Notes under the pieces: generated by a model
Databases searched by the model: none
What the model was told of the DNA's origin: nothing
What the model saw: the letters and a program-made list of their open reading frames with translations, nothing else
Translations under genes and position numbers: made by a program
Shown: in pieces, positions 3,413-15,637 of the stretch
Numbering within the stretch: the first letter of the stretch is position 1
How the letters are laid out: every line of letters begins with the position of its first letter
Assembly: GCA_963728605.1 (NCBI GenBank)
Contig: CAVSKS010000009.1
Coordinates: forward strand, 599,317 to 663,316
Direction of reading: 5' to 3'
DNA: 64,000 bases
Source: an uncultured Chloroflexia bacterium
GTDB taxonomy: Bacteria; Chloroflexota; Limnocylindria; Limnocylindrales; CSP1-4

Positions 3413-3553
3413 CTCGTGGATAACCGCCTTCCCAGGTGCCGACCTTCCCGACTACAGTAGGTCTTGCCTGAAGGGGCCACGGACCGAAAGCAGTCTCGCG
3501 GGTGCTTGCATCAGCGGGAATGGCTACGGACCGACGGTTCCTTCGGGCGTTTC
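3413..3553 (+). ncRNA. candidate cis-regulatory structured RNA leader, copy B (paralogue of 1064-1205)
   Basis: Same conserved blocks and the same P1 arms (3466-3474 with 3540-3548) as copy A. Lies directly upstream of the dehydratase-like gene at 3579. Confidence 0.4.
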
Positions 3554-3578
3554 TCTTTGTCCCCGGAGATCCGCAGCC

Positions 3579-4550
3579 GTGCCGGTCCCGCGCGACGATC
3601 CCGAGCTCGAGCCCGCGGCCATTCGCGCCGCCGTGGCCGACATCGACCCCGTCTTCAGCAACTCCCCGCAGTTCGTCCACGACGGCCTGTCCGAGCGCGC
3701 CGGTCGACCGGTCGTCGTCAAGGTCGAGACCGTCAACCCGATCGGCGCATTCAAGGGCCGTGGAACTTGGCTGGTCATGCGCCGACTGGCAGGGGAGGGG
3801 AGGGTCGGCCCGGATCGTGCCTGTGTCGTCGCCTCGACCGGCAACTTCGGGCAAGGCATCGCCTACGCCGGCCGGTCGATCGGCGTGCCGGTCGTCGTGT
3901 TCGCGCACGCGGACGCCAATCCCACCAAGGTCGACCGGATCCGCCGGTTCGGGGCGACCGTCCTGGCCACGGGACGCGACTTCGACGAGGCTCGCGAGGC
4001 GTCCGCCAGGTACGCCAGGGAGCATGACGCCACGCTCGTCGTCGACGGTGAGCTGCCGTCGATCGCCGCCGGCGCCGGGACGCTCGCCGTCGAGCTGACC
4101 GACGCGGTCGCGGCGGGGCGCCTGCCCCAGATCGGTGCGGCCTACGTGCCGGTCGGCAACGGTGCGCTGATCGTCGGCGTCGGGGCGTGGCTGCGATCGG
4201 CCGCGCCGGGCTGTCGGGTCATCGGGGTGCAGTCGGACGCCGCGCCGTCGATGACCCTGTCGTGGCGGGAAGGCCGGCTCGTCGAGACCGAGACCGCGGA
4301 GACCTACGCCGACGGGATCGCCACCAGGGTTCCGGTCCCGGAGGCCCTCGAGATGATGGGCGGCCGGGTCGACGACATGCGGCTCGTCGCCGAGGCGGGC
4401 CTCCACGCCGCCCAGGTCGAGCTACGCGAGGCGCTCGGGATCACCGTCGAGGGCGCGGCCGCCGCGTCATGGGCAGGGCTGCTAGCCGATACCGAGCCGG
4501 CGCCGGGTGCCGCACTGGTGATCATCACGGGGAGCAACGCCCCCCGCTGA
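3579..4550 (+). CDS. PLP-dependent fold-type II enzyme (threonine/serine dehydratase or cysteine synthase superfamily)
   Basis: GTG at 3579, in the frame of ORF 3363..4550, chosen downstream of the leader. FKGRG lysine motif, STGNFGQGIAYAG glycine-rich loop, typical length. Confidence 0.8.
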   Translation: MPVPRDDPELEPAAIRAAVADIDPVFSNSPQFVHDGLSERAGRPVVVKVETVNPIGAFKGRGTWLVMRRLAGEGRVGPDRACVVASTGNFGQGIAYAGRSIGVPVVVFAHADANPTKVDRIRRFGATVLATGRDFDEAREASARYAREHDATLVVDGELPSIAAGAGTLAVELTDAVAAGRLPQIGAAYVPVGNGALIVGVGAWLRSAAPGCRVIGVQSDAAPSMTLSWREGRLVETETAETYADGIATRVPVPEALEMMGGRVDDMRLVAEAGLHAAQVELREALGITVEGAAAASWAGLLADTEPAPGAALVIITGSNAPR

Positions 4551-4555
4551 CGGCG

Positions 4556-4861
4556 TCAGTGGTTCGAGACGTCGTCGACGATGTTGAAGACGAAGACCGG
4601 CAGCCCGGGGGTTTCGGGCAGGTCCTTGATGCACAGCCGCGTGTTGCCGTTCTTGTCGCTGTCGGCCCACCACAGGTCCAGCGGCTCGCCGAGCAGCTCC
4701 TCGGGCACGCCGAGCGCTCGCGAAACGTCACGAAAGGCGTCCTTGGTGGAGCTCGTGAAGCCGTCGTTCGGACAACCGCGGGCAGGCTTGGCGGCGCTCA
4801 CGGGCGCGGCGCCTACCGTCAGCAGCACGACCACCAGCAGGACCCTGACGACCACGCGCAT
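4556..4861 (-). CDS. small secreted hypothetical protein
   Basis: Internal ATG at 4861 preceded by GGGAGG. Signal peptide MRVVVRVLLVVVLLTVGAAPVSA. About 101 aa. Confidence 0.6.
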   Translation of the reverse strand: MRVVVRVLLVVVLLTVGAAPVSAAKPARGCPNDGFTSSTKDAFRDVSRALGVPEELLGEPLDLWWADSDKNGNTRLCIKDLPETPGLPVFVFNIVDDVSNH

Positions 4862-5018
4862 GTCGACCTCCCTCGATCCAGGACCCCAGTCTACCTGCCG
4901 GATCACCTGATTCGGTGAGGCCAACCCACCCGATGGTCAGGCTGGTCAAGCGGCCAGCGGCCGGTGACGATAGGCACCGCAGTAGCCCAGCTGCTCCTGA
5001 CAACATGGAGGTTTCCCG

Positions 5019-5201
5019 ATGTTCGGCCGAGTTTTCCGCACGAGTGATCCATTCGAGGGCCGCGGCGCCCGCCGGCGGAACGTCAGAGTCCAGGTCGAGA
5101 GCTTCGTTGCCTTTGCCTTCGCCATCGTCGCCTGCGGCCTGGTGGCGGCGACGTGGCTGCAGCTGCTGGCGCCGTTCGCCGACCAGTTCGTCCTGCACTG
5201 A
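5019..5201 (+). CDS. small hypothetical membrane protein
   Basis: GGAGG 7 nt upstream of the start. One hydrophobic helix, FVAFAFAIVACGLVAATWLQLL. Confidence 0.35.
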   Translation: MFGRVFRTSDPFEGRGARRRNVRVQVESFVAFAFAIVACGLVAATWLQLLAPFADQFVLH

Positions 5202-5208
5202 CCGTCCG

Positions 5209-5499
5209 CTAGCGGTCCAGGCGGAAGTCGAGACCGCGCCTCTGGAGCGCCGGCTTCAGCAGGACGATCGACTTCGGCCCGAAGCCGTGCAGCCGGAGCA
5301 GCTCGCGCTCGCTGTGCCTTGCCACCTGTTCCAGCGTGCGGATGCCGGCCCCGTGTAAGGCATCCCGGGCGGGGTTTGAGAGGCTGGTCGGAAGGTCATC
5401 GGTCGACACGGTCAGCCGACGATAGCAGCCAGAGTCGCGGACCCGACCCACGTCGGCTAGTTGACAGGGCCACGCTCGCCACAACCGGGCCTTGCTCAC
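5209..5499 (-). CDS. small helix-hairpin-helix protein resembling the RNA polymerase alpha C-terminal domain (start uncertain)
   Basis: DDLPTSLSNPARDALHGAGIRTLEQVARHSERELLRLHGFGPKSIVLLKPALQRRGLDF follows the RpoA-CTD pattern (L.LS.R..N.L...GI.T...L......ELL....FG.KS). Third-position GC is high only in the C-terminal about 65 codons, so the true start is probably internal. Confidence 0.45.
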   Translation of the reverse strand: MSKARLWRAWPCQLADVGRVRDSGCYRRLTVSTDDLPTSLSNPARDALHGAGIRTLEQVARHSERELLRLHGFGPKSIVLLKPALQRRGLDFRLDR

Positions 5500-5534
5500 G
5501 TCTCATCGCAAACTTGCAGCGTGGACGTGCCTGA

Positions 5535-6920
5535 ATGACCCGCCGAACCTCGACCCTCCTCACCGCGGCCCTGACGGCGCTCGCCGCCGCCTGCAGCGTC
5601 CGCATCCCGCCAGCATCGTCGCCGCCGATCGCTGGCCCGACTGCATCTGCGACCGCGAGGGCCTCGGCGGCCGCGGCCTCGGCGGTGCCGGTGTCACCGC
5701 TCGTGCCTACGCCTCCGCCGGCCGGTGGGGGCCTCACCGCGGAGCTCGTTTGTGAGGAGCCGGGATGCGGGCTCAGCCTCCTCGACGCCGACGGCGAGGT
5801 CATGCCCGGTTGGCCGGTCGAGCTCGACGGCTTCTGCAGCGGGGCGGTGACCGACGGAATCCAGCGCGTCTATGCGGCCTGTGACATCAGCGTCGAGGGG
5901 CCCACGCTGCATGGATTCAACGCCAGCGGGGCGGTCGCGGACGGCTGGCCCGTCATCCTTCCGGCACCCATCGGCACCGTCTCCGTGAACGATTTCACCG
6001 CGGTATGCGGACGGCAGTTGCCGCCGATCTCCCTTGGCGCGGACGGCACGCTGTACGTGAGCACGTGGGACGAATCCGTGCGGCTGCTCCATGCCATCGA
6101 CCCCGCCGGGCAGCCTCGGGCCGGGTGGCCCCAGCCATTGCCGGGTGACAACCAATTCGGCTGCGGTGGGTTCACGCTCCTGCCCGACCAAACGCTCCGT
6201 GCCTGGGGGTACGAAGGGGAGCCCTCCGTGCCAATCGAACTGGGCTACGGTCCGTTCGCCCAGCGGACCGTATTCACAGCCTTGGCGGCTGATGGCTCCA
6301 CGCTGCCCGGTTGGCCATTCGGTTCAACGGGCACAGGCTCCGGTGCGCTGATCGGCGCCGACGGGACCCTGTACCACGTCTCGGAGGCGGGCAACGTGTG
6401 GGCCCACGGGATGGACGGCCAGCCGAAGCCGGGTTGGCCATTCGCGCTAGGCGAGGAGTGGATGTCGCCGTACCTCGCTCCCGACGGCCGGCTGGTCCTG
6501 CTCTCTGCCACCGGCACCGGCGAGATCGTCGCCATCGGCCCGGACGGAGCCACGTCCCCGGGCTGGCCGCGGCGGCTGCTCGTGGGTCGTGCCTCGCCGT
6601 GTCTGTACAACGGCGACACGGACTGCTTCTTCCTGGTGGAACCGGTGTTCGGACCTGACGGGACGGTCTACCTCGCCCTCGCGCCGATCGCGGAGGGCCT
6701 GGGTGGCAGCATCCTGGCCCTCGGACCGGACGGCCTCGTCCCTGCCGGCTGGCCGTTGCAGCTACCCGACGCCGTGGGCGCGGTCGGGCTGGCGGTCGAC
6801 GGAGCCGGCCACGTCATCGTCCACACGGCGACGTGCACCAGCGAGCCCTGCTGGGAGACCGCGGTCTACGACTCGCTCACCATCAGCGGTGCGGGCCAGG
6901 TCATCGAGGGGCGCCCCTGA
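5535..6920 (+). CDS. lipoprotein with beta-propeller-like GWP repeats
   Basis: Lipobox LTALAAAC. At least seven repeats carry (P/A/D)GWP(V/F/Q). Confidence 0.75.
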   Translation: MTRRTSTLLTAALTALAAACSVRIPPASSPPIAGPTASATARASAAAASAVPVSPLVPTPPPAGGGLTAELVCEEPGCGLSLLDADGEVMPGWPVELDGFCSGAVTDGIQRVYAACDISVEGPTLHGFNASGAVADGWPVILPAPIGTVSVNDFTAVCGRQLPPISLGADGTLYVSTWDESVRLLHAIDPAGQPRAGWPQPLPGDNQFGCGGFTLLPDQTLRAWGYEGEPSVPIELGYGPFAQRTVFTALAADGSTLPGWPFGSTGTGSGALIGADGTLYHVSEAGNVWAHGMDGQPKPGWPFALGEEWMSPYLAPDGRLVLLSATGTGEIVAIGPDGATSPGWPRRLLVGRASPCLYNGDTDCFFLVEPVFGPDGTVYLALAPIAEGLGGSILALGPDGLVPAGWPLQLPDAVGAVGLAVDGAGHVIVHTATCTSEPCWETAVYDSLTISGAGQVIEGRP

Positions 6921-7091
6921 GTCGCCGCGGCTACTCGCGGGCCGTAGGCCGCCACCGAGTCGCTCGACCAGGGGATCGATCCGATGCCCGGGAAGGCATC
7001 GGGCGGCCACGGCGATTGAAAATCAGCGAGGCCGGGAGGATGATGCTTCACGGCGAGCCGCACCGTTCTGTGCGGCACCACGTGGGGAGGG

Positions 7092-7697
7092 ATGAGCACC
7101 ATGGCGATGAACAACCCCAACAGCAGGGTGCAGGGGATCTTCGAGTCGCTCATCGGGGTCATGCGCGACGCCAAGGCGACGCAGCTCAAGGTGGAGATCG
7201 ACAACAAGCTCAAGGAGCAGAACGCGGTTGGCGACATGTCACCCAATGACCTGTACGACCTGATGGACAAGGCCGCGGCGACCAACACCGCCCTCCAGGA
7301 GAACGACATCGAGCGGGACATCGTCGTCCGCGCCGTCAGCGACGACATGGTCCAGAAGACCGCGGCCAAGGTGGTCACCATCCTCCGGCTTCCGCCCACG
7401 CCCGAGCTGATCGAAGCCGTCAAGGTGAACATCGATCAGGCCAAGCACGACGACTACGCGACGACCCACATCAACGACATGCTCGGCGAGATGGCGATGG
7501 CCGCCGTGGACACCCCGCAGGTCCGTGAGGCAAACCCGAACTTCAAGGGACTCGACGAGACCACAAAGGGCGCCATCGTCGCGGATGTGGTCGCCGACCT
7601 CCGCGAGCGAGTCTCGATCACCGTCGCCAATGACCTGATCACGCCGCCCGGGACTGCGCCCGGCGGGTACCCGAGCCGCTCCACGTCGCCACGCTGA
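7092..7697 (+). CDS. hypothetical protein (helical, no recognised domain)
   Basis: GGGAGGG before the ATG. Very high third-position GC over all 201 codons. Confidence 0.7.
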   Translation: MSTMAMNNPNSRVQGIFESLIGVMRDAKATQLKVEIDNKLKEQNAVGDMSPNDLYDLMDKAAATNTALQENDIERDIVVRAVSDDMVQKTAAKVVTILRLPPTPELIEAVKVNIDQAKHDDYATTHINDMLGEMAMAAVDTPQVREANPNFKGLDETTKGAIVADVVADLRERVSITVANDLITPPGTAPGGYPSRSTSPR

Positions 7698-7778
7698 CCC
7701 GGGGCCTTCGCCCAGAGGCTCGATCGTGGCCTCCCACGCGTCGATGTGGGAGGCCGGCGTCAGCGCGGGGTCAAAGGG

Positions 7779-8195
7779 TCAGAAATCGCGCCGACCCTCG
7801 AAGTGCTCGCCGACCTCCGGCCTGGTGAGCTGGTACAGGGCGATCCGCTGCCCACCTGGCGCGCGGAACGAGCACACCGGACCATGCGGAATCTCGAACG
7901 TCCGCTCCCGCTCCCAGCCGCGGCCGTCGAGCTCGGCCAGCGCGGCTGGTAGATCCGCGACCCGGTAGACGAGGACCGGCGCCTCACCCTCGACGTGGTC
8001 GGCCAGCAGGATCCGCGGGGCGGTGGGGGAGAGCTCGAGCATACAGACGCGGGCGCCCATGCCCTCAACGGCGAAGACGATCCGTCCGCCGAGGACGTCC
8101 TGGAAGTACGCGGCGTCGGTGGCGACATCCCGGCTCGGCATGTAGACGAAGTCGAGCGACTCGAACACGACCCGAAGCCTACGCCGGGCTGCCAT
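7779..8195 (-). CDS. VOC/glyoxalase-bleomycin-resistance family protein
   Basis: Internal ATG at 8195. LRVVFESLDFVYMP...GGRIVF...VLVYRVADLPAALAELDGRG...RAPGGQRIALYQ is a typical glyoxalase-fold pattern. Confidence 0.6.
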   Translation of the reverse strand: MAARRRLRVVFESLDFVYMPSRDVATDAAYFQDVLGGRIVFAVEGMGARVCMLELSPTAPRILLADHVEGEAPVLVYRVADLPAALAELDGRGWERERTFEIPHGPVCSFRAPGGQRIALYQLTRPEVGEHFEGRRDF

Positions 8196-8244
8196 GATCG
8201 ATGTCGAGTCCGACCCCGACCCTGGCCCAAAGGAGCTTCCCTCC

Positions 8245-8889
8245 GTGTCACTCGCCCGCGTCCAGTTCTTCTCGATCTCGCTCGACGGCTTCGGCACCGG
8301 CGAGGGCCTCAGTCTCGAGGCGCCGTTCGGCCACGCCGGCGAACGTCTGCACGAGTGGATGTTCGTCACCCGGTGGTGGCAGGAGCGGTCGGGCGAGCCA
8401 GGCGGCAGCGCTGGCATCGACGACGCGTTCATCCGGATGCACGATCTTGGGGTCGGTGCCGAGATCATGGGTGCCGGGAAGTTCGGCTATCCCGGCTGGC
8501 ACGAGGACCCCGACTGGAAAGGCTGGTGGGGCGATAACCCGCCATTCCACACCCCGGTCTTCGTGCTGACCCATCACCGGCGCCCTCCGATCGAGATGGA
8601 GGGCGGGACGACGTTCCACTTCCTTGACACGTCTCCGGCGGAGGCTTTGGAGACGGCCCGCACGGCCGCCGGCGGCCAGGATGTCCGGATCGGCGGCGGG
8701 GCCAAGGTGATCCGGGCGTTCCTCGAGGCTCGGCTCATCGACCACATGCACCTGGTGGTGGTCCCGATCCTGCTCGGCCGGGGCGAGCGCCTGTGGGACG
8801 GACTCGAGGGCCTCGAGCGGGACTACGCGATCGAGTCCGTCTCGTCGCCAAGCGGTGTTACCCACCTGACGTTCACCCGGGTGGGGTGA
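8245..8889 (+). CDS. dihydrofolate reductase-like protein (RibD C-terminal domain family)
   Basis: GTG at 8245 with AGGAG 9 nt upstream. ARVQFFSISLDGFG...VFVLTHH...VRIGGGAKVIRAFLEARLIDHMHLVVVPILLGRGERLW. Confidence 0.7.
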   Translation: MSLARVQFFSISLDGFGTGEGLSLEAPFGHAGERLHEWMFVTRWWQERSGEPGGSAGIDDAFIRMHDLGVGAEIMGAGKFGYPGWHEDPDWKGWWGDNPPFHTPVFVLTHHRRPPIEMEGGTTFHFLDTSPAEALETARTAAGGQDVRIGGGAKVIRAFLEARLIDHMHLVVVPILLGRGERLWDGLEGLERDYAIESVSSPSGVTHLTFTRVG

Positions 8890-8928
8890 TTGACAAGCGA
8901 TCACCCTGTTCTTACCGTTGTTGGTAAG
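8890..8928 (+). promoter_or_regulatory. putative vapBC promoter (-35 TTGACA) with a perfect inverted-repeat operator CTTACC-N6-GGTAAG
   Basis: TTGACA at 8890-8895. Palindrome cttaccgttgttggtaag at 8911-8928, 11 nt before the vapB ATG. Confidence 0.4.
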
Positions 8929-8939
8929 AAAGGGGTGGG

Positions 8940-9179
8940 ATGAGGATCACGTCGAAGGGCCAGGTTACGATTCCGCAGGCCATCCGCGAGCAGGCGGGTC
9001 TGATGCCGAACACCGAGGTGGAGTTCCGGGTGGAGGGTGACATCGTCACGCTGATGAAGGCTGTCAGAGCTCGGCGCAAGACGCGAGGCGCTGAGATCGT
9101 GGCGCGCCTCCGCCAGGGCAAGAGACACGTCACGATGACGACGGACGAGATCATGGCCCTCACGCGTGGCGACGATTGA
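8940..9179 (+). CDS. vapB: AbrB/MazE/SpoVT-type antitoxin (VapB-like)
   Basis: MRITSKGQVTIPQAIRE motif. Stop overlaps the start of the downstream PIN gene. Confidence 0.8.
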   Translation: MRITSKGQVTIPQAIREQAGLMPNTEVEFRVEGDIVTLMKAVRARRKTRGAEIVARLRQGKRHVTMTTDEIMALTRGDD

Positions 9180-9577
9180 CCATCCTGGTCGACAGCAACG
9201 TCGTCCTCGATGTGATCACCGAGGATCCGCTCTGGCAAGAATGGTCCAGCCAGGCCCTCGCTGATGCCGCCGATCGAGCGGTCCTGGTGATCAACCCGAT
9301 CGTCTACGGTGAGGTCTCGATCGGATTCGGCACGATCGAAGCCCTTGAAGGAGCCTTGCCGGGACCGATCCGCCGCGAGGAGCTGCCGTACGAGGCCGCC
9401 TTCCTGGCCGGCAAGTGTTTCCTCGAGTACCGCCGCCGCGGGGGAGTGCGGCGTTCGCCGCTGCCGGACTTCTACATTGGCGCTCACGCCGCCGTCCGAG
9501 GGTACGAATTGCTCACCAGAGATGCCGCTCGGTATCGGACGTACTTTCGGCGCCTGACACTGATCGCTCCAAGCTAG
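9176..9577 (+). CDS. vapC: PIN-domain toxin VapC
   Basis: TTG start overlapping the TGA of vapB. ILVDSNVVLD...INPIVYGEV is PIN signature. Confidence 0.85.
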   Translation: MTILVDSNVVLDVITEDPLWQEWSSQALADAADRAVLVINPIVYGEVSIGFGTIEALEGALPGPIRREELPYEAAFLAGKCFLEYRRRGGVRRSPLPDFYIGAHAAVRGYELLTRDAARYRTYFRRLTLIAPS

Positions 9578-9588
9578 ACGCGCTGGTG

Positions 9589-9608
9589 TTGACTAAGTTC
9601 GACTAAGT
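9589..9608 (+). promoter_or_regulatory. putative promoter/operator of the second TA pair: TTGACT plus direct repeat GACTAAGT x2
   Basis: ttgactaagttcgactaagtca lies 16 nt upstream of the antitoxin ATG at 9624. Confidence 0.25.
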
Positions 9609-9623
9609 CACTACCGTTGGCCT

Positions 9624-9857
9624 ATGCATCGAGCCATCAACATCCACGAGGCCAAGACCCACCTCTCGCGGCTCATTGAACGCGTCGAAGCCGGCGAGGA
9701 GATCACCCTCGCGCGCGCCGGCCGGCCCGTTGCCAGGCTCGTGCCCTATGTCGCCAGGGGCGAGCCACGCCGACGTGGGGCGTGGAAAGGCAAAGTTCGG
9801 ATTGGCCCGGACTTCGACGAACCACTGCGCGACTTTGAGCAGGCCCTGGAGGGTTGA
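9624..9857 (+). CDS. Phd/YefM-family antitoxin
   Basis: MHRAINIHEAKTHLSRLIERVEAGEEITLARAGRPVARLVP is a classic Phd/YefM N-terminus. Confidence 0.8.
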   Translation: MHRAINIHEAKTHLSRLIERVEAGEEITLARAGRPVARLVPYVARGEPRRRGAWKGKVRIGPDFDEPLRDFEQALEG

Positions 9858-10231
9858 TCCTCGTCCTCGACGCCCACACGGTCCTGTGGTGGCTAGCCGA
9901 CGAACCGAGCCTGTCGAGCGAGGCTGCCAGCGCCATTGATGATCCCGCCAACCAAGTGCTCGTCTCGGCGGCGACCATCTGGGAGATCGAGGCGAAGCGA
10001 CAGGCCGGCCGCCTTCAAGCCCCGGCCGATCTTCTGGCAGCGCTCGAGCAGGCAGCCATCCTGACGGTGCCTGTGACCGCCGAGGACGCTGTCGCCGCTG
10101 CCGGCCTACCGCGCCACCACGCGGACCCCTTTGATCGCATGCTCGTCGCCCAGGCGATGCGGCTGGACGCCATCATCGTGACCAAGGATCGAGCACTGGC
10201 GGCATACGGGATCGAAATCCTGCCGGCCTGA
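9854..10231 (+). CDS. vapC: PIN-domain toxin VapC
   Basis: TTG start overlapping the antitoxin stop. LVLDAHTVLWWL...ATIWEIEAKRQ...IIVTKD. Confidence 0.85.
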   Translation: MILVLDAHTVLWWLADEPSLSSEAASAIDDPANQVLVSAATIWEIEAKRQAGRLQAPADLLAALEQAAILTVPVTAEDAVAAAGLPRHHADPFDRMLVAQAMRLDAIIVTKDRALAAYGIEILPA

Positions 10232-10971
10232 TTAAGCGTGGCGATCACTTCCGATAAGGTAAGTTATGTCTGCGAGACGCCGATCGTGGCCATGATGTCG
10301 CGTGGCTCGGTCGGATCCTCGAAGGATTTGCCCCGTGATTACGGACCAACGCGTTAGTAAAGGTGAGTTCGGGACCCAATCCATGCCGGGTTGCAAGGCG
10401 TCGAATGACTTCCTTGCCGGGAAACATAGCCGCCACGTGCCGTCGCTAAGGGACGTCTCGATCGCCGCCGCCGTGGTCCGAACGAGCGCTCTCCACGCTA
10501 CTGGCGGTGGTATTCGCCATTGACAGCGGCCGTGTGGAGCACTGGCGGCGCTGGATGTGGAAGCGCTGAGTGGCCGCACTTGCGGTATCGCCTGGTCCCA
10601 GACATGTGCGAGCGGTGCCAAGGACCATTCGCGGATGTGCCGTCGAACGCACCGATTGAGCCAGTCCACGGGTCTGAAGAACTGTTTTGCAAGTTGGCTC
10701 GCGACTCGGTCGCGGAGCACCTTGCCGGCAAGGGTTCGACATGCCTCGATCATGTGGGCGTCAATCTCTGCGACGGAGTGGGTGAGGTTGCTCCCATCTC
10801 TTCGACGGTTTCCAGAATCGCGTCTGCCTCGAGAAGGTAGTTCTCGATTTCGTGCCGTTCGAGCACGACCAGCCTGTCGCCCGCCTGGCGGCTGTAGCCG
10901 GCGACTTGATCGGCTGTCAGGTAATCCCGATCGCGGATCAGGATAGAACGACGTGCCTGGAACCGTCTCAC
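10232..10971 (-). pseudogene. decayed Toprim-like nuclease partner gene (DUF4435/DUF4276-like, OLD/PARIS-type module), multiple frame breaks
   Basis: Fragment ILIRDRDYLTADQVAG...RLVVLERHEIENYLLEADAIL matches the C-terminal RDRD / E..LL signature of the Toprim partner in ATPase+Toprim defence pairs. Continues in another frame (ORF 10232..10753). Region is AT-richer than its surroundings. Confidence 0.4.
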
Positions 10972-10999
10972 CTAGGATCGCGAGCGCCGCCCTGTTGAC

Positions 11000-12280
11000 G
11001 CTTGCAATGCGTTCTCAGCGCTGTTGAGCGGGATCAATCGAACGACTCAGCCAATCGATGGAAACATGTAAACGAATGCCCGTGGATCTCTGTCGATAAA
11101 TCACCTTCAAGGAAGACCATGCGGTGGGCCATCCCGATGTAGCCCGAGAACCCGAAGATGGCCCGCATGAATGTGACGCGGTCTGCTCATCCGTGGCGGA
11201 TCGTGCGTATCCTCTGGCCGCCTGGCGCGTCGCGCTGGATGAGATAGGTGCGGTCGCGGCCCGCTTCATCGATCAACTCGAGCAGTTGTGCGTAGCAAGC
11301 CACAGCTGGTTGCAGGGATGGGATGCAGGGTCTCAAGTCGAACAAGAGCGCGCCTCGCCAATTCCGGTGCAGGTAAATTTCTAAACGATTAGTGTACGAG
11401 GATGATGTATGTACCTCGATTCCATTGCGCTCGAGGAAGCTGAGGACGAAGAACGCCTCTTGCTCGCCGGAGGACAGGTCCGTGAACGGAACTTGAGGTC
11501 CGTCAGGCGGAAGAAAATTTCCAGCTGGTCTCGCAGTTCATCGCCAGATCGAACGAACGGATAGCCTGGAAAGAGCCCGTCAAGGATGCGCTCGTACGCG
11601 TCGAGAGGATCGTCCGCCTCGGCCCGGGGTCCTCACCGCGCTCAGACGCCATGGCATGTAGGCCTATTCTTCGGGGATGGCTGTAGGCCTCCTCCACGAG
11701 ATACTCAACCTGATCGACGTACTGGTTCTCCGTCAGGTTAAAGGCCATTGTGCGGAGGTAATTTGCGGTGAGTCTATTAGTGTGGTTCCAATAGGTGTTT
11801 CGGTTATATCGGTGCTGCGGGTGGCCGGTCAGACCGAAGAAACACAGCCTTCATCGTCCCGCTTAGACACCGACTCACCAACGCGTGCGCATTGTCGTGA
11901 TACGAGGCGTCGTCGTCATGCTCTCCGCCGGAAAATCGTAGGCTCGTATGTACTCTCGCGCGGTCCCGAGCTGGAAAAGACACCCGCTGGATCTATCCCA
12001 GGATCCTCGTCCAGGCGCTGCCGGATAATCGCGATCTCGCCCTCGGTAAGGCCGAAACGCACCTCAAACGATTAATTACAGGCAAACATTCTCCCGGCGC
12101 TGCCAGTCGTAGCCGTGCGACGACGTCAGGGCGAAAGCCAGAGGGTGCAAGGATCGAACTCTTGCCGCCCGTTGGGCCCGCGACAAGGATCAATTCGAGG
12201 CACGCGGTTACACTGAAGGGACCGAGGCGTAGGTCTGTCAGGTGTCGGAATCGCCTTACGGAGACGTCCGCTACGTACAT
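11000..12280 (-). pseudogene. decayed AAA15/ABC-type ATPase gene (OLD/PARIS-like), fragmented
   Basis: N-terminal fragment VRRFRHLTDLRLGPFS...LVAGPTGGKSSIL with a shortened Walker A, at 11993-12280. Fragment LSSGEQEAFFVLSFLERNGIEV (ABC signature) at about 11400-11470 in another frame. No intact long ORF and low GC. Confidence 0.4.
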
Positions 12281-12304
12281 GTCTTGTCCTCTTACCCGGG
12301 TCAG

Positions 12305-12622
12305 CTATGCCGCTACCCTATCGAGTTGACCAGGCGTCGCCGCCTCTTTGGCGACCATCGAATGCCACGATCGTCCGTCCGTTGGCTTGGAGCTGTGGAG
12401 ACGAGGGCGGGTCCGACGATCACGCCGACGTAGTCGAACTCGAAGCCCCGCGCGGTGTAGAGGCAGCCGACCTCGTTCGATCCCCTCTTTCGCGCTCGCC
12501 CAGAAGCCGGACCTCGGGATGCCGGGATCGAGCCGCCCGACGCCGTCGCGGGCGTTCCAGCGCATCGCCCAGTCCCCCATCCTGACGTCGGGCTCTTGCA
12601 GGCCGGCGGCAGAAGCGCTCAT
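12305..12622 (-). pseudogene. DUF2075 gene fragment (duplicate of the C-terminal region of the gene at 13817-15637)
   Basis: EPDVRMGDWAMRWNARDGVGRLDPGIPRSGFWASAKEGI versus EPDVRVGDWSMPWNARDGVGRLGPGIPKSDFWASAKEGI in the intact gene. About 180 bp of DNA (12418-12595) is about 85% identical to 14101-14280. Confidence 0.6.
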
Positions 12623-12798
12623 GGCAGGCGGTGCTCCCGGACTTCGCCGGTTGCCATCACCTCCAGCAGCCGCATCGACAACTGTTCCCGGATGTCGAGC
12701 GGGATGCGCAGCACGGACGGAACGGCGTCCGTGGGAACGGCGAGTGCGACTGCGGACGCATCCTCTGTGCGCGCGAGCCCCGTCGAGCTATCCAGAGA

Positions 12799-13845
12799 TC
12801 AGGGCGTCGACGTTGCGAAGTCCAGATGTGCCGTCCTAACTTCCACCACCAACCGCTCTTCTGCCCGCTCGGCCACGATGTCGGCACCCGAGCCGCGGTG
12901 TTCCACCAGTTTCCACCCGCCTTCGGAAAGCCATTGCCGAACAGTCGCCTCGAGCTCGTGTGCTTCCCGCTGCGCGTGAGCGTTCGCCTGGAGAATGAAT
13001 CGACGGGCACCGTCCAAGAGGCTTTGGGACAGCTGGATGCCTGCCCTCACGTCTTCGTCCGCGAGGCGTTCAGGGTGCGTCCGAACGGTATCGCGCAGCA
13101 CCTCGAAGGCACGAAGTTCGTCTCTAAAGACGTTCGCCCACCCTCGGAGGCTCATCAACTGGGCCGAGAGACTGTGGTCATCAAGCCCAGCTTCACGCGC
13201 GATCGCCATCGTCGCCGACTGACCCCACGGGCCGAGGGCAAGCCGGAGATATCGGTCGACGTCGGTCACACTCGCGAGCAGCCTAGCCTCATCGAGCGCG
13301 CGATCAGGAGACAGACGCCGAGGCTCCTCGCGCGGCGTGTCGATAACTACCGGAGCTTGGCCTTGCTCAAGCAGAGCGTCCTTTTCTTGGGCCTGTTCCG
13401 CCGAAGCTACGAGATCTGGGATCGCGAGATTGAAGTGCAGGCTCTGCGATTGTCCGACTTGCACCTGGAGTGTCTGGATGTGCTCGCTTAACTCCTTCGT
13501 CAGCTCGGTCTGTTCCCGGATCTGCCGCCTGATACTGCCTAAGCCTGCGACACTGATCTCCGACAGATCCGGGTAGAGAAGCAGAGCAAGGAGCACAACG
13601 ACGGCGATCAGAAGCCCGTCAGCCAGACCCACTGGACTGCAAACGCGAACGACAGTGCTATTGGGGGCAACGTCCTCGCTGCAGCGCTGCCACTCCGGCG
13701 AGACGTAGGACGCAGCGATGAGTCCAGCGACGATCGCGAGAATGAGAAGCGACGTCAACCAGCGGATGGCTCGCACGGCGAGCGACCATTTCGATACGGC
13801 CACCCCTACTGGCGTTTCAGTCACCCGCGCGTACCTCACCGCCAT
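12799..13845 (-). CDS. membrane-anchored coiled-coil hypothetical protein, co-directional with the DUF2075 gene
   Basis: TM helix LTSLLILAIVAGLIAASYV plus a second hydrophobic segment, followed by a long helical region. Start overlaps the DUF2075 stop by 29 nt (an internal start is possible). Lower GC than the core genes. Confidence 0.55.
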   Translation of the reverse strand: MAVRYARVTETPVGVAVSKWSLAVRAIRWLTSLLILAIVAGLIAASYVSPEWQRCSEDVAPNSTVVRVCSPVGLADGLLIAVVVLLALLLYPDLSEISVAGLGSIRRQIREQTELTKELSEHIQTLQVQVGQSQSLHFNLAIPDLVASAEQAQEKDALLEQGQAPVVIDTPREEPRRLSPDRALDEARLLASVTDVDRYLRLALGPWGQSATMAIAREAGLDDHSLSAQLMSLRGWANVFRDELRAFEVLRDTVRTHPERLADEDVRAGIQLSQSLLDGARRFILQANAHAQREAHELEATVRQWLSEGGWKLVEHRGSGADIVAERAEERLVVEVRTAHLDFATSTP

Positions 13846-15637
13846 ACCTCGCTCTCCCTTCGGCAGCTCGGTTCTCGACGGGCGCGGGATGTTCTGTTCG
13901 GCTCAGGAAGAAGTCGCGCGTCGGGGCGTCCATGAAGTAGACGTAGCAGCCGCGGAGGCCGCGGGTTAGCAGGACCCGGTAGGTGCTCTTGACGTAGCGG
14001 GTGAACTCGGCCTCGGTGACGCCGCGGCGGACGACGCGGTCGTGGGACTGGTCGCGCTGGCCGACCCATCCCCCATCCATCGGCCGGTAGACGAGGTCGG
14101 GGCCGACGATCACGCCGACGTAGTCGAACTCGAAGCCCTGCGCGGTGTAGACGCAGCCGACCTGGTCGATCCCCTCCTTGGCGCTCGCCCAGAAGTCCGA
14201 CTTCGGGATGCCGGGGCCGAGCCGGCCGACGCCGTCCCTGGCGTTCCAGGGCATCGACCAGTCCCCCACCCTGACGTCGGGCTCGAGCTGGCCGGCGGCG
14301 TCGGGGTCGGACCAGGGCCAGCAGAAGCCGGCGACGAGTCGGGCGGTCGCCCCCTCCCCTGCCCGCTCGCGGATCAGGCGCTCGAGCTCGCGGACGTTGC
14401 CGACGATCCGGAAGTCGAACTCGTCGTCCATCGACCACAGGACCTGCGGCGTCCGGGCGAGCTCGAGGGTGTTGTCGACCCACTGGATGAACGAGTCGGA
14501 GCCGTTCGCCCGGAACTGCGCCTCGAGCTTGAAGTCGCGGACCTCGATCCCCCGCTTGGCGGCCGACTCGCGGATCAGGTCGGTGCTGCCGACCTCGCCC
14601 GGGCGGACGACCTGGAGGTCGTCGATGAAGAAGACCGACACGCGGCTGGCGTCGAGGATGTCGTCCATCTGGGACTTGCCGGTTCGGGCCTTGGCCGGCG
14701 TGAAGCGGCTGGTGCTGATCGTCCGGATCCGGTGGGCCTCGTCGAGGATCGCGACGTCGAGCGGCTCGGTGACGGTGGCGGTGTCGCGGAAGTACTTGAA
14801 CAGCGCGCCCGCCCGGCCGCCGACGAGCTTGCGCAGGTTCTCGGTGAACGCCTTCGAGCCGGTCAGGTGGAGGGTGCTGAGGCCGCGCTCGGCCAGCTCG
14901 GCGACGAGGTTGACGGCGATGACCGACTTGCCGGTGCCGGGCCCGCCCTCGACGAGGAAGACGACGTGGCGCTTGTTCTCGCCGGCGCCGCGGACCTCGT
15001 CGATGATCGCGTTGTAGGCGACGAGCTGCTCGTCGAGGAGGGTGAACGCGGGCTCGTTGCGGATGACCCGGGCGACGTGGTCGAGCAGCCGCTTGTGCGG
15101 CTTGAAGGCGGTCGTGGCGACGCGGTCGAGGATCTGGTTCGCCTCGTCGGGGCCGCTGACGCGCTGGTCGAGGAAGGTGGCGAAGGCGTCGCGCTGGTCG
15201 CCGGCGAAGCTCGGGTTTGTCGCCAGGAGCGTCGCGAAGTCGGCGTGGTAGAGCGGCGACTTCGGGTCGTACTGGGCGAAGTGGAGCCAGGCGCAGGCGG
15301 CGAGGTCGATCGGCGGCTCGTCGGTGAACGCCGGGTGGGTGTCCTGGAGGTAGCGCTGGTACTGGGCGACCTGGCGGCTCGGGTGGAGGTGGTCGCGCGG
15401 CCGGCCGCCGAAGTCGACGGTGACGCAGTCGGTGATGTTCGACCGGCCGACCTCGGTCCACTGCTTGAGCTCGACGACGACGGCGTGATCGCGGCGGGTG
15501 GCCGGGTTCGAGCCGGTGATCAGGACGTCGAGGCGCTTCGAGGTCAGCGGGAGTCGCAGCTCGACGAGGATCCCCTGGTCGGTCAGGTCAGCGAGCTGGA
15601 GGACGCTCGGCCATCGACGCTGAGCGAGTTGCGCCAC
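13817..15637 (-). CDS. DUF2075-family P-loop NTPase (Schlafen-like helicase-type) with an N-terminal nuclease-like domain
   Basis: 606 aa. Walker A VFLVEGGPGTGKSVIAVNL and Walker B VAILDEAHRI. C-terminal region characteristic of DUF2075. Confidence 0.85.
   Translation of the reverse strand: MAQLAQRRWPSVLQLADLTDQGILVELRLPLTSKRLDVLITGSNPATRRDHAVVVELKQWTEVGRSNITDCVTVDFGGRPRDHLHPSRQVAQYQRYLQDTHPAFTDEPPIDLAACAWLHFAQYDPKSPLYHADFATLLATNPSFAGDQRDAFATFLDQRVSGPDEANQILDRVATTAFKPHKRLLDHVARVIRNEPAFTLLDEQLVAYNAIIDEVRGAGENKRHVVFLVEGGPGTGKSVIAVNLVAELAERGLSTLHLTGSKAFTENLRKLVGGRAGALFKYFRDTATVTEPLDVAILDEAHRIRTISTSRFTPAKARTGKSQMDDILDASRVSVFFIDDLQVVRPGEVGSTDLIRESAAKRGIEVRDFKLEAQFRANGSDSFIQWVDNTLELARTPQVLWSMDDEFDFRIVGNVRELERLIRERAGEGATARLVAGFCWPWSDPDAAGQLEPDVRVGDWSMPWNARDGVGRLGPGIPKSDFWASAKEGIDQVGCVYTAQGFEFDYVGVIVGPDLVYRPMDGGWVGQRDQSHDRVVRRGVTEAEFTRYVKSTYRVLLTRGLRGCYVYFMDAPTRDFFLSRTEHPAPVENRAAEGRARYGGEVRAGD

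Follow-up and report, generated by a model that had tools for sequence, protein, structure and literature searches.

PARIS defence systems combine an ABC-type ATPase sensor, AriA, with a Toprim nuclease of the DUF4435 type, AriB, and the two are known to occur either as separate genes or as a single-gene fusion (PMC9122126, PMC11464382). In Escherichia coli PARIS, the Walker A residue K39 of AriA, on which trigger sensing depends, and its Walker B residue E393 are required for defence (PMC11464382), while E26 and other acidic residues of AriB are catalytic and AriB cleaves tRNA (PMC11464382, PMC12409363). Here we describe a related locus in a stretch of 64,000 nucleotides (nt) from contig CAVSKS010000009.1 of an uncultured Chloroflexia bacterium (GCA_963728605.1), the whole of which is called the window below. 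We read positions 10245-12280 on the minus strand as a dead copy of one fused PARIS-type (AriAB) gene in a variable defence slot, with a probability of roughly 0.87.

It is useful to compare the locus with the described systems. Fused PARIS (AriAB, PADLOC model PDLC02981) has the same order of parts, i.e. an ABC/AAA_21 ATPase, a DUF4435 Toprim domain and a helical tail in one chain of ~660 amino acids (aa), but the present copy is dead, is about 47-49% identical to its nearest intact relatives, and lies in a Chloroflexota chromosome hotspot, not in a phage or satellite. With the E. coli B185 system (AriA + AriB; PDB 8UX9, 8V45-8V49) the locus shares the type of sensor and of tRNase effector: the family profile matches AriA around the signature, Walker B and the H-loop, and the E-G, DxD and ExE-N-Y motifs of the Toprim domain are recognisable. 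However, the E. coli system consists of two proteins that assemble as AriA6:AriB3 and let go of AriB, which dimerises, whereas here the two parts are covalently fused and the sequence similarity is remote. OLD nucleases and Gabija GajA (6P74) also have a single-chain ABC ATPase plus Toprim architecture, but the nuclease half at this locus is of the DUF4435/AriB type. Finally, AbiL (AbiLi/AbiLii) and the PtuA of Septu and retron systems carry a related AAA_15/AAA_21 ATPase module, and PtuA is found among the fold matches, but these are two-gene systems, PtuA having an HNH partner, and their scores are far below those of AriAB. The gene and its two halves are placed as follows:

10245-12280, minus strand: pseudogene whose intact form encoded an AriAB-type PARIS fusion in one chain, placed by collinear frameshift-aware alignment and by PADLOC AriAB.
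11135-12280, minus strand: AriA-like half with the ABC-type ATPase, which in intact relatives falls under AAA_21/AAA_15; its border with the nuclease half is approximate.
10245-11134, minus strand: DUF4435/Toprim nuclease half (AriB-like) with the helical C-terminal part, placed by AriAB, AriB and DUF4435 fragment matches.

The pseudogene starts at an ATG (12280-12278), and its last recognisable frame closes at a stop codon (10247-10245) that sits 13 nt from the stop of a convergent VapC gene; its length is 2036 nt, compared to 1974-1986 nt for the genes of five intact relatives. Its pieces, concatenated into a crude query, matched 171 proteins in a database of 5.8 billion sequences (best E value 9.3e-88), and the 120 matches listed are all single chains of 618-732 aa with AAA_15/AAA_21, many of them also with DUF4435. 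In tblastn searches with six intact relatives, residues 1 to about 646 were collinear on 12280->10308 in alternating frames. A custom frameshift-aware protein-to-DNA aligner, written for lesion counting, covered aa 1-644/646 of ~660 of three relatives (P0002, P0001 and P0005) at 47-49% identity after correction, with a score of 1214 against P0002 as opposed to 22 for the reversed DNA. The domain junction (FGFSGYIGMAHRMVFLEG) aligns gap-free to the single-chain relatives and contains no intergenic boundary, therefore the ancestor was one fused gene and not a two-gene cassette.

An earlier note made from the sequence had described the region as a decayed two-gene, OLD/PARIS-like module of an ATPase and a Toprim-like partner. 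The remnant of a PARIS-kind abortive-infection system with a decayed ATPase and a Toprim-like (DUF4435) part stands, and its fragments do align to the ATPase and DUF4435/Toprim families in profile and protein searches. The two genes have to be given up, since residues 1-646 of single-chain AAA_21/AAA_15+DUF4435 proteins of ~660 aa follow one another collinearly in the remnant, and so has the OLD half of the label, for the reasons given by the profile scores below. The peptides quoted in that note were all found on the minus strand where it had placed them:

ORF 11993-12280, minus strand: MYVADVSVRRFRHLTDLRLGPFS...GPTGGKSS.
From 11457-11477 onwards, minus strand: LSSGEQEAFFVLSFLERNGIEV.
ORF 10750-10971, minus strand: ILIRDRDYL...VLERHEIENYLLEADAIL.

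It was also right that no intact open reading frame (ORF) exists, since the pieces within 10232-12300 are spread over all three minus-strand frames and the longest ORF has 173 aa.

The family assignment is clearest in the intact relatives, which match the PADLOC model AriAB (PDLC02981) over nearly all of its 694 positions with E values of 1e-73 to 1e-98 (246-329 bits). The frame-corrected translation of the pseudogene reaches E 2.7e-42 and 143 bits on the same model, over positions 252-672 plus an N-terminal stretch. Uncorrected fragments are recognised as well: the N-terminal fragment matches AriAB at profile positions 1-40 (E 0.0054), and a 73-aa DUF4435 fragment matches AriAB (E 6.7e-8, positions 489-536), AriB (E 9.2e-7) and Pfam DUF4435, the latter at E 0.0018 and 18.5 bits, under the curated cut-off of 27 bits. 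The corrected translation reached no Pfam model at E<=0.01, and the intact relatives score 79-96 bits for AAA_21 and 48-57 bits for AAA_15. On other PADLOC models the intact relatives give E values of about 1e-27 (AriA), 1e-19 to 1e-23 (PtuA) and 1e-15 to 1e-18 (AbiLi). Their matches to Old and GajA (E 1e-10 to 1e-12) extend over about 60-80 residues of the ATPase, a short segment compared to the AriAB match, and the corrected pseudogene has no match to either PADLOC model at E<=0.001. A profile of 40 family sequences matched solved AriA (8ux9/8v45, E 3e-10), PtuA, OLD and Rad50 with its ATPase half. In terms of membership, then, the locus shows both domains in one polypeptide by the junction alignment, a full-length profile match, N-terminal ATPase homology and a C-terminal DUF4435 part with acidic motifs, but its ORF is not intact and it has no functional Walker A or Walker B; the remnant is a pseudogene of the fused PARIS family, not a working member. 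It does not belong to two-gene PARIS with separate ATPase and DUF4435 ORFs, as its nearest relatives are all fusions, nor to OLD/Gabija, as a full-length Old or GajA profile match is absent in the intact relatives.

It is conceivable in principle that the remnant derives from a two-gene AriA + AriB cassette, or from an OLD/Gabija-type ATPase-Toprim nuclease. The locus does show ATPase as well as Toprim-like motifs, the relatives give weak matches to the models Old, GajA and ATPase-Toprim, and in the AlphaFold model of P0002 (pLDDT 82), which matched OLD 6p74 and PtuA structures through the ATPase, the top full-length fold match is the Thermus OLD nuclease 6p74. Nevertheless we regard this origin as very unlikely, because the remnant crosses the junction FGFSGYIGMAHRMVFLEG without a gap in alignments to single-chain proteins, all the 120 matches listed of the 171 are single proteins of 618-732 aa, the AriAB model is ahead of Old and GajA by >60 orders of magnitude, and the nuclease half has DUF4435 motifs and finds its best fold match in AriB, not in an OLD Toprim domain.

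The fused AriAB gene that we prefer as the ancestor has been damaged at many points, and the state of its motifs is best seen line by line:

12155-12178, minus strand: Walker A/P-loop remnant GPTGGKSS, against the invariant GPNGGGKS.
11457-11477, minus strand: ABC signature LSSGEQE, preserved (S270, G272 and E273 family-invariant).
11364-11399, minus strand: Walker B block, destroyed (family VFVDEPEMHLHP).
11285-11302, minus strand: H-loop region WLATHN, preserved, in a frame that differs from its neighbours (motif alignment).
11100-11117, minus strand: first Toprim acidic motif VFLEGD, preserved with its family-invariant E-G (motif alignment).
11045-11047, minus strand: in-frame TGA inside a well-aligned block, MFPSIG*VVRLIPLNSAENALQ against MFPAVADEIRFVPINSADNALR.
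10918-10935, minus strand: Toprim DxD motif RDRDYL, preserved (motif alignment).
10831-10854, minus strand: HEIENYLL motif, preserved with its family-invariant E-N-Y (motif alignment).

Against P0002, P0001 and P0005, the aligner counted 18-20 frameshifts and 2-3 in-frame stops. With the penalty set to -25, -18 or -8 it reports 13, 18 or 25 frameshifts, respectively, and again 18 at -12, and the in-frame stops range from 1 to 4 overall. The same aligner at the standard penalty finds 0 frameshifts in the genes of intact relatives that are 53-56% identical to the guide. The corrected reading keeps 47 of the 55 residues that are invariant across 40 relatives, and those lost include N37 of the P-loop, D296, E297 and P298 of Walker B, and R396. 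The shortened Walker A that had been noticed before is real, i.e. one codon was lost in-frame and N37 became Thr, with the Lys and Ser of Walker A surviving. In the Walker B block the family sequence VFVDEPEMHLHP now reads SYTNRLEIYLHR in one frame and IILVH*S in the adjacent one (D->H, E->TAA, P->S), and both the Asp and the catalytic Glu are gone on either reading. Another candidate for Walker B, LLFDLRPCIPSLQ, was rejected as an out-of-frame reading of ARRALVRLETLHPIP, the true position being 11364-11399. A frameshift at about 11089 follows VFLEGD, and the invariant Arg of DRR (R396) is changed to Pro. E. coli PARIS requires each of three residues, the Walker A Lys and the Walker B Glu of AriA and the Toprim Glu of AriB (PMC11464382), and the copy is therefore dead on several independent counts; the locus cannot make the protein, and what remains encodes nothing recognisably functional.

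Several points weigh against our reading of the locus and have to be discussed. The family is only weakly similar to E. coli AriA (E about 1e-5 to 1e-10, around the signature and Walker B only), and the 40-sequence profile found no sequence match to solved AriB in the PDB. When the C-terminal 284 residues of P0002 were modelled separately (pLDDT 84), the single credible PDB match was the AriB chain 8v46_D (probability 0.98, 297 aligned columns), a marginal one with E 0.011 and a template modelling (TM) score of about 0.35; this predicted fold is supportive but not strong evidence for the assignment of the nuclease half. The searches yielded no intact ortholog that is close, and even the best relative reaches about 47-49% identity after frame correction. 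Moreover, any mechanism proposed for the fused forms is transferred from the two-protein PARIS of E. coli. Finally, the source is probably a long-read metagenome-assembled genome (MAG), and in related MAGs the nearby DUF2075 gene is split, which means that assembly errors could account for part of the indels.

The last point deserves attention, as it could mean that the gene is intact and active and that its frameshifts are indel errors which a long-read metagenome assembly accumulated in a segment of low GC or strain variation. The source contig measures 752 kb, and its nearest relatives are long-read MFD MAGs. Several of these have their DUF2075 gene spread over 2-4 frames, hence data of this kind do contain indel errors. 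Even so, an intact gene is very unlikely. The 13-25 frameshifts are confined to 2 kb, while elsewhere in the window the long uninterrupted coding frames include ones of 1088, 809, 680, 641 and 635 aa. No other stretch that lacks a coding-like frame is as large as 10231-13817, which consists of this locus and the adjacent orf348 with its low GC content at third codon positions (GC3). None of the inferred shift sites falls in a homopolymer run. Substitutions and in-frame lesions are also unlike indel errors, and they include the TGA at 11047-11045, the D/E/P of Walker B, the Asn->Thr change with a missing codon in the P-loop, and R396P. Lastly, the PADLOC score is halved even after frame repair (143 vs 246-329 bits).

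As a separate observation, the DUF2075 gene (at about 10001-11760 in most) is broken into 2-4 frame segments in six related loci (L026, L027, L028, L032, L033 and L044), most of them from long-read MFD assemblies. These breaks reflect either assembly indels or repeated pseudogenisation, and they call for caution in pseudogene calls from such data.

The composition of the locus is a further point of interest. In 400-nt windows the GC content is 0.565-0.60 across about 10800-12400 and 0.65-0.73 farther out on both sides, so the drop pointed out in the earlier note is real, as are the flanks it described, two VapBC-type pairs on one side and a DUF2075 gene on the other. The corrected-frame GC1/2/3 of the pseudogene is 0.62/0.47/0.67, and its GC3 of 0.67 compares with 0.96 in the DUF2075 gene and 0.76-0.87 in the other neighbours. 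What could not be upheld is the idea that low GC marks decay, e.g. through AT-biased mutation: the intact genes of relatives have the same GC (0.58-0.60) and GC3 (0.65-0.69), in contigs of 0.64-0.65 GC, therefore the low value is a trait of the family and not a product of decay. It is inherited from the gene family as a mobile-gene composition. Two easy misreadings are thus corrected, since the remnant represents one fused gene and not two, and its low GC stems from the gene family. The horizontal acquisition suggested earlier is plausible, because the gene is compositionally foreign and no AriAB homolog was found in syntenic relatives.

How the intact protein may have worked can be sketched by analogy. 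The ancestral protein was a single chain of ~660 aa, with its ABC/AAA_21-type ATPase at the N-terminus and its DUF4435 Toprim nuclease at the C-terminus. If it resembled two-protein PARIS (PMC11464382, PMC12409363), the ATPase part would sense a phage-encoded trigger in an ATP-dependent manner, and the triggered ATPase would license the Toprim nuclease to cut host tRNAs, so that translation stops and the infection is aborted. A covalently fused nuclease cannot be set free as a separate subunit, and we speculate that the fused form might be activated in cis or by a rearrangement between protomers or within an oligomer. The gene presumably arrived horizontally in a slot downstream of a DUF2075/SLFN-like helicase gene of a Limnocylindria-like Chloroflexota genome, and inactivation followed, leading to the present state with about 18 frameshifts, 1-4 stops, a short P-loop and a destroyed Walker B. 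A scan of metagenomes for closer AriAB relatives found none above about 35% best-segment identity, and a scan of viral contigs gave one distant match and identified no phage carrier.

The surroundings of the pseudogene consist of the following features:

8940-9577, plus strand: MazE/AbrB-type antitoxin and PIN pair (domain search).
9624-10231, plus strand: Phd/YefM antitoxin and PIN pair (domain search), converging on the 3' end of the pseudogene.
12399-12610, minus strand: immediately upstream of the pseudogene, a displaced piece from inside a DUF2075/SLFN-helicase gene that covers aa ~449-516 with one frameshift.
12799-13845, minus strand: orf348, between the DUF2075 gene and the displaced fragment, overlapping the DUF2075 stop by 29 nt.
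13817-15637, minus strand: intact DUF2075/SLFN-g3_helicase-like gene, conserved across the lineage, that anchors the variable slot (Pfam PF09848, E 7.6e-88).

With its high GC content and its VapBC pairs the window resembles actinobacterial DNA at first glance, but the host is a Limnocylindria-like member of the Chloroflexota. About 33 MAG species of this phylum, labelled Chloroflexia/Limnocylindrales, encode proteins with 75-92% aa identity to that of the DUF2075 gene, and the closest relatives of the neighbouring genes are all from Chloroflexota MAGs. In 80 related genome loci neither an intact nor a decayed AriAB homolog was found next to DUF2075, and orf348 likewise had no homolog in them. 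DNA synteny with relatives resumes at about 1-720 and 3450-3560 of the window only, therefore ~3600-13800 can be regarded as a variable slot. Directly downstream of DUF2075 this slot holds different defence cargo in different Chloroflexota relatives:

L030, 4459-8297: type II CBASS (SAVED-PDDEXK effector, cyclase, E1-E2).
L005, 4039-7329: PDC-S48 and an Abi_C protein.
L002, 12699-15485: cyclase-NB-ARC-TPR protein.
L022, 11881-14115: PDC-M36A-like protein.
L001, 12656-14503: ion channel and PIN protein.

The slot downstream of the DUF2075/SLFN-like helicase gene is thus a defence hotspot, and it is a place to seek defence cargo in these genomes.

A remnant in a recombination-active slot might have been retained for another role, for example as an RNA that regulates or acts as a decoy, as a short leftover peptide or as a substrate for hotspot recombination, and about 2 kb of the gene is indeed kept at full length without large deletions despite many small lesions. 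This is extremely unlikely in our view: scans of the whole 64 kb found no Rfam family and no tRNA, a scan of 10000-13000 for promoter-like and terminator-like sites found none, none of the related loci conserves a homologous remnant, and the longest ORF of the remnant is an out-of-context 173-aa tail.

Single-gene AriA-AriB fusions have already been described. The dead AriAB copy is thus a real but unremarkable pseudogene from a known type of defence system, and it matters little on its own. It does show that defence scanners limited to called proteins miss such a locus entirely, while reading the raw sequence recovers fossils of this kind, and it adds a data point on how an uncultured Chloroflexota lineage gains and loses toxic genes for abortive infection.

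One metagenome contig (L082, 3921-9974; ENA ERZ25039476 contig_12140) has the same order of genes, DUF2075, a 633-aa protein without assignment and AriAB, and it mirrors the window in that its DUF2075 is the broken gene, spread over three frames, and its AriAB is intact. On this basis DUF2075 and AriAB were considered as functional partners, an idea that was rejected because DUF2075 lies nearby in 1 of about 70 AriAB-family loci and is conserved without AriAB in all close relatives. The adjacency in L082, being unique among these loci, therefore points to a shared hotspot and not to a functional pairing.

Several relatives carry homologs of each of the toxin-antitoxin pairs close to their DUF2075 gene, with aa identities of 41-69%:

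L005, 8636-9249: toxin-antitoxin pair homolog.
L009, 6646-7238: toxin-antitoxin pair homolog.
L011, 2884-3524: toxin-antitoxin pair homolog.
L024, 16651-17273: toxin-antitoxin pair homolog.

The pairs may have entered the slot before the AriAB gene did. The adjacent orf348 is an ORFan, its sole match among 5.8 billion protein clusters being itself, and it has no Pfam or PADLOC match; it has a GC3 of 0.70 and, close to its N-terminus, two hydrophobic helices. The codon statistics of a 286-aa ORF that runs the other way (12631-13491) are similar, so either strand may be the coding one.

The displaced 212-bp fragment at 12399-12610 is a direct repeat of 14089-14299 on the minus strand, 88-94% identical and 1.69 kb away. 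We offer, only tentatively and with more doubt than conviction, the idea that cassettes recombine in the 3' third of the helicase gene, regenerate the gene and leave displaced fragments behind in a lineage-wide hotspot, so that the AriAB fossil, orf348 and the VapBC pairs would be successive layers. If this were true, the locus would record a gene-targeted insertion with no integrase in view, which is undescribed for Chloroflexota. Displaced partial copies of the 3' third of the DUF2075 gene are also found downstream of the gene in L007 (12516-12884), L003 (13113-13253) and L041 (13166-13360), and insertions seem to recur inside this part of the gene.

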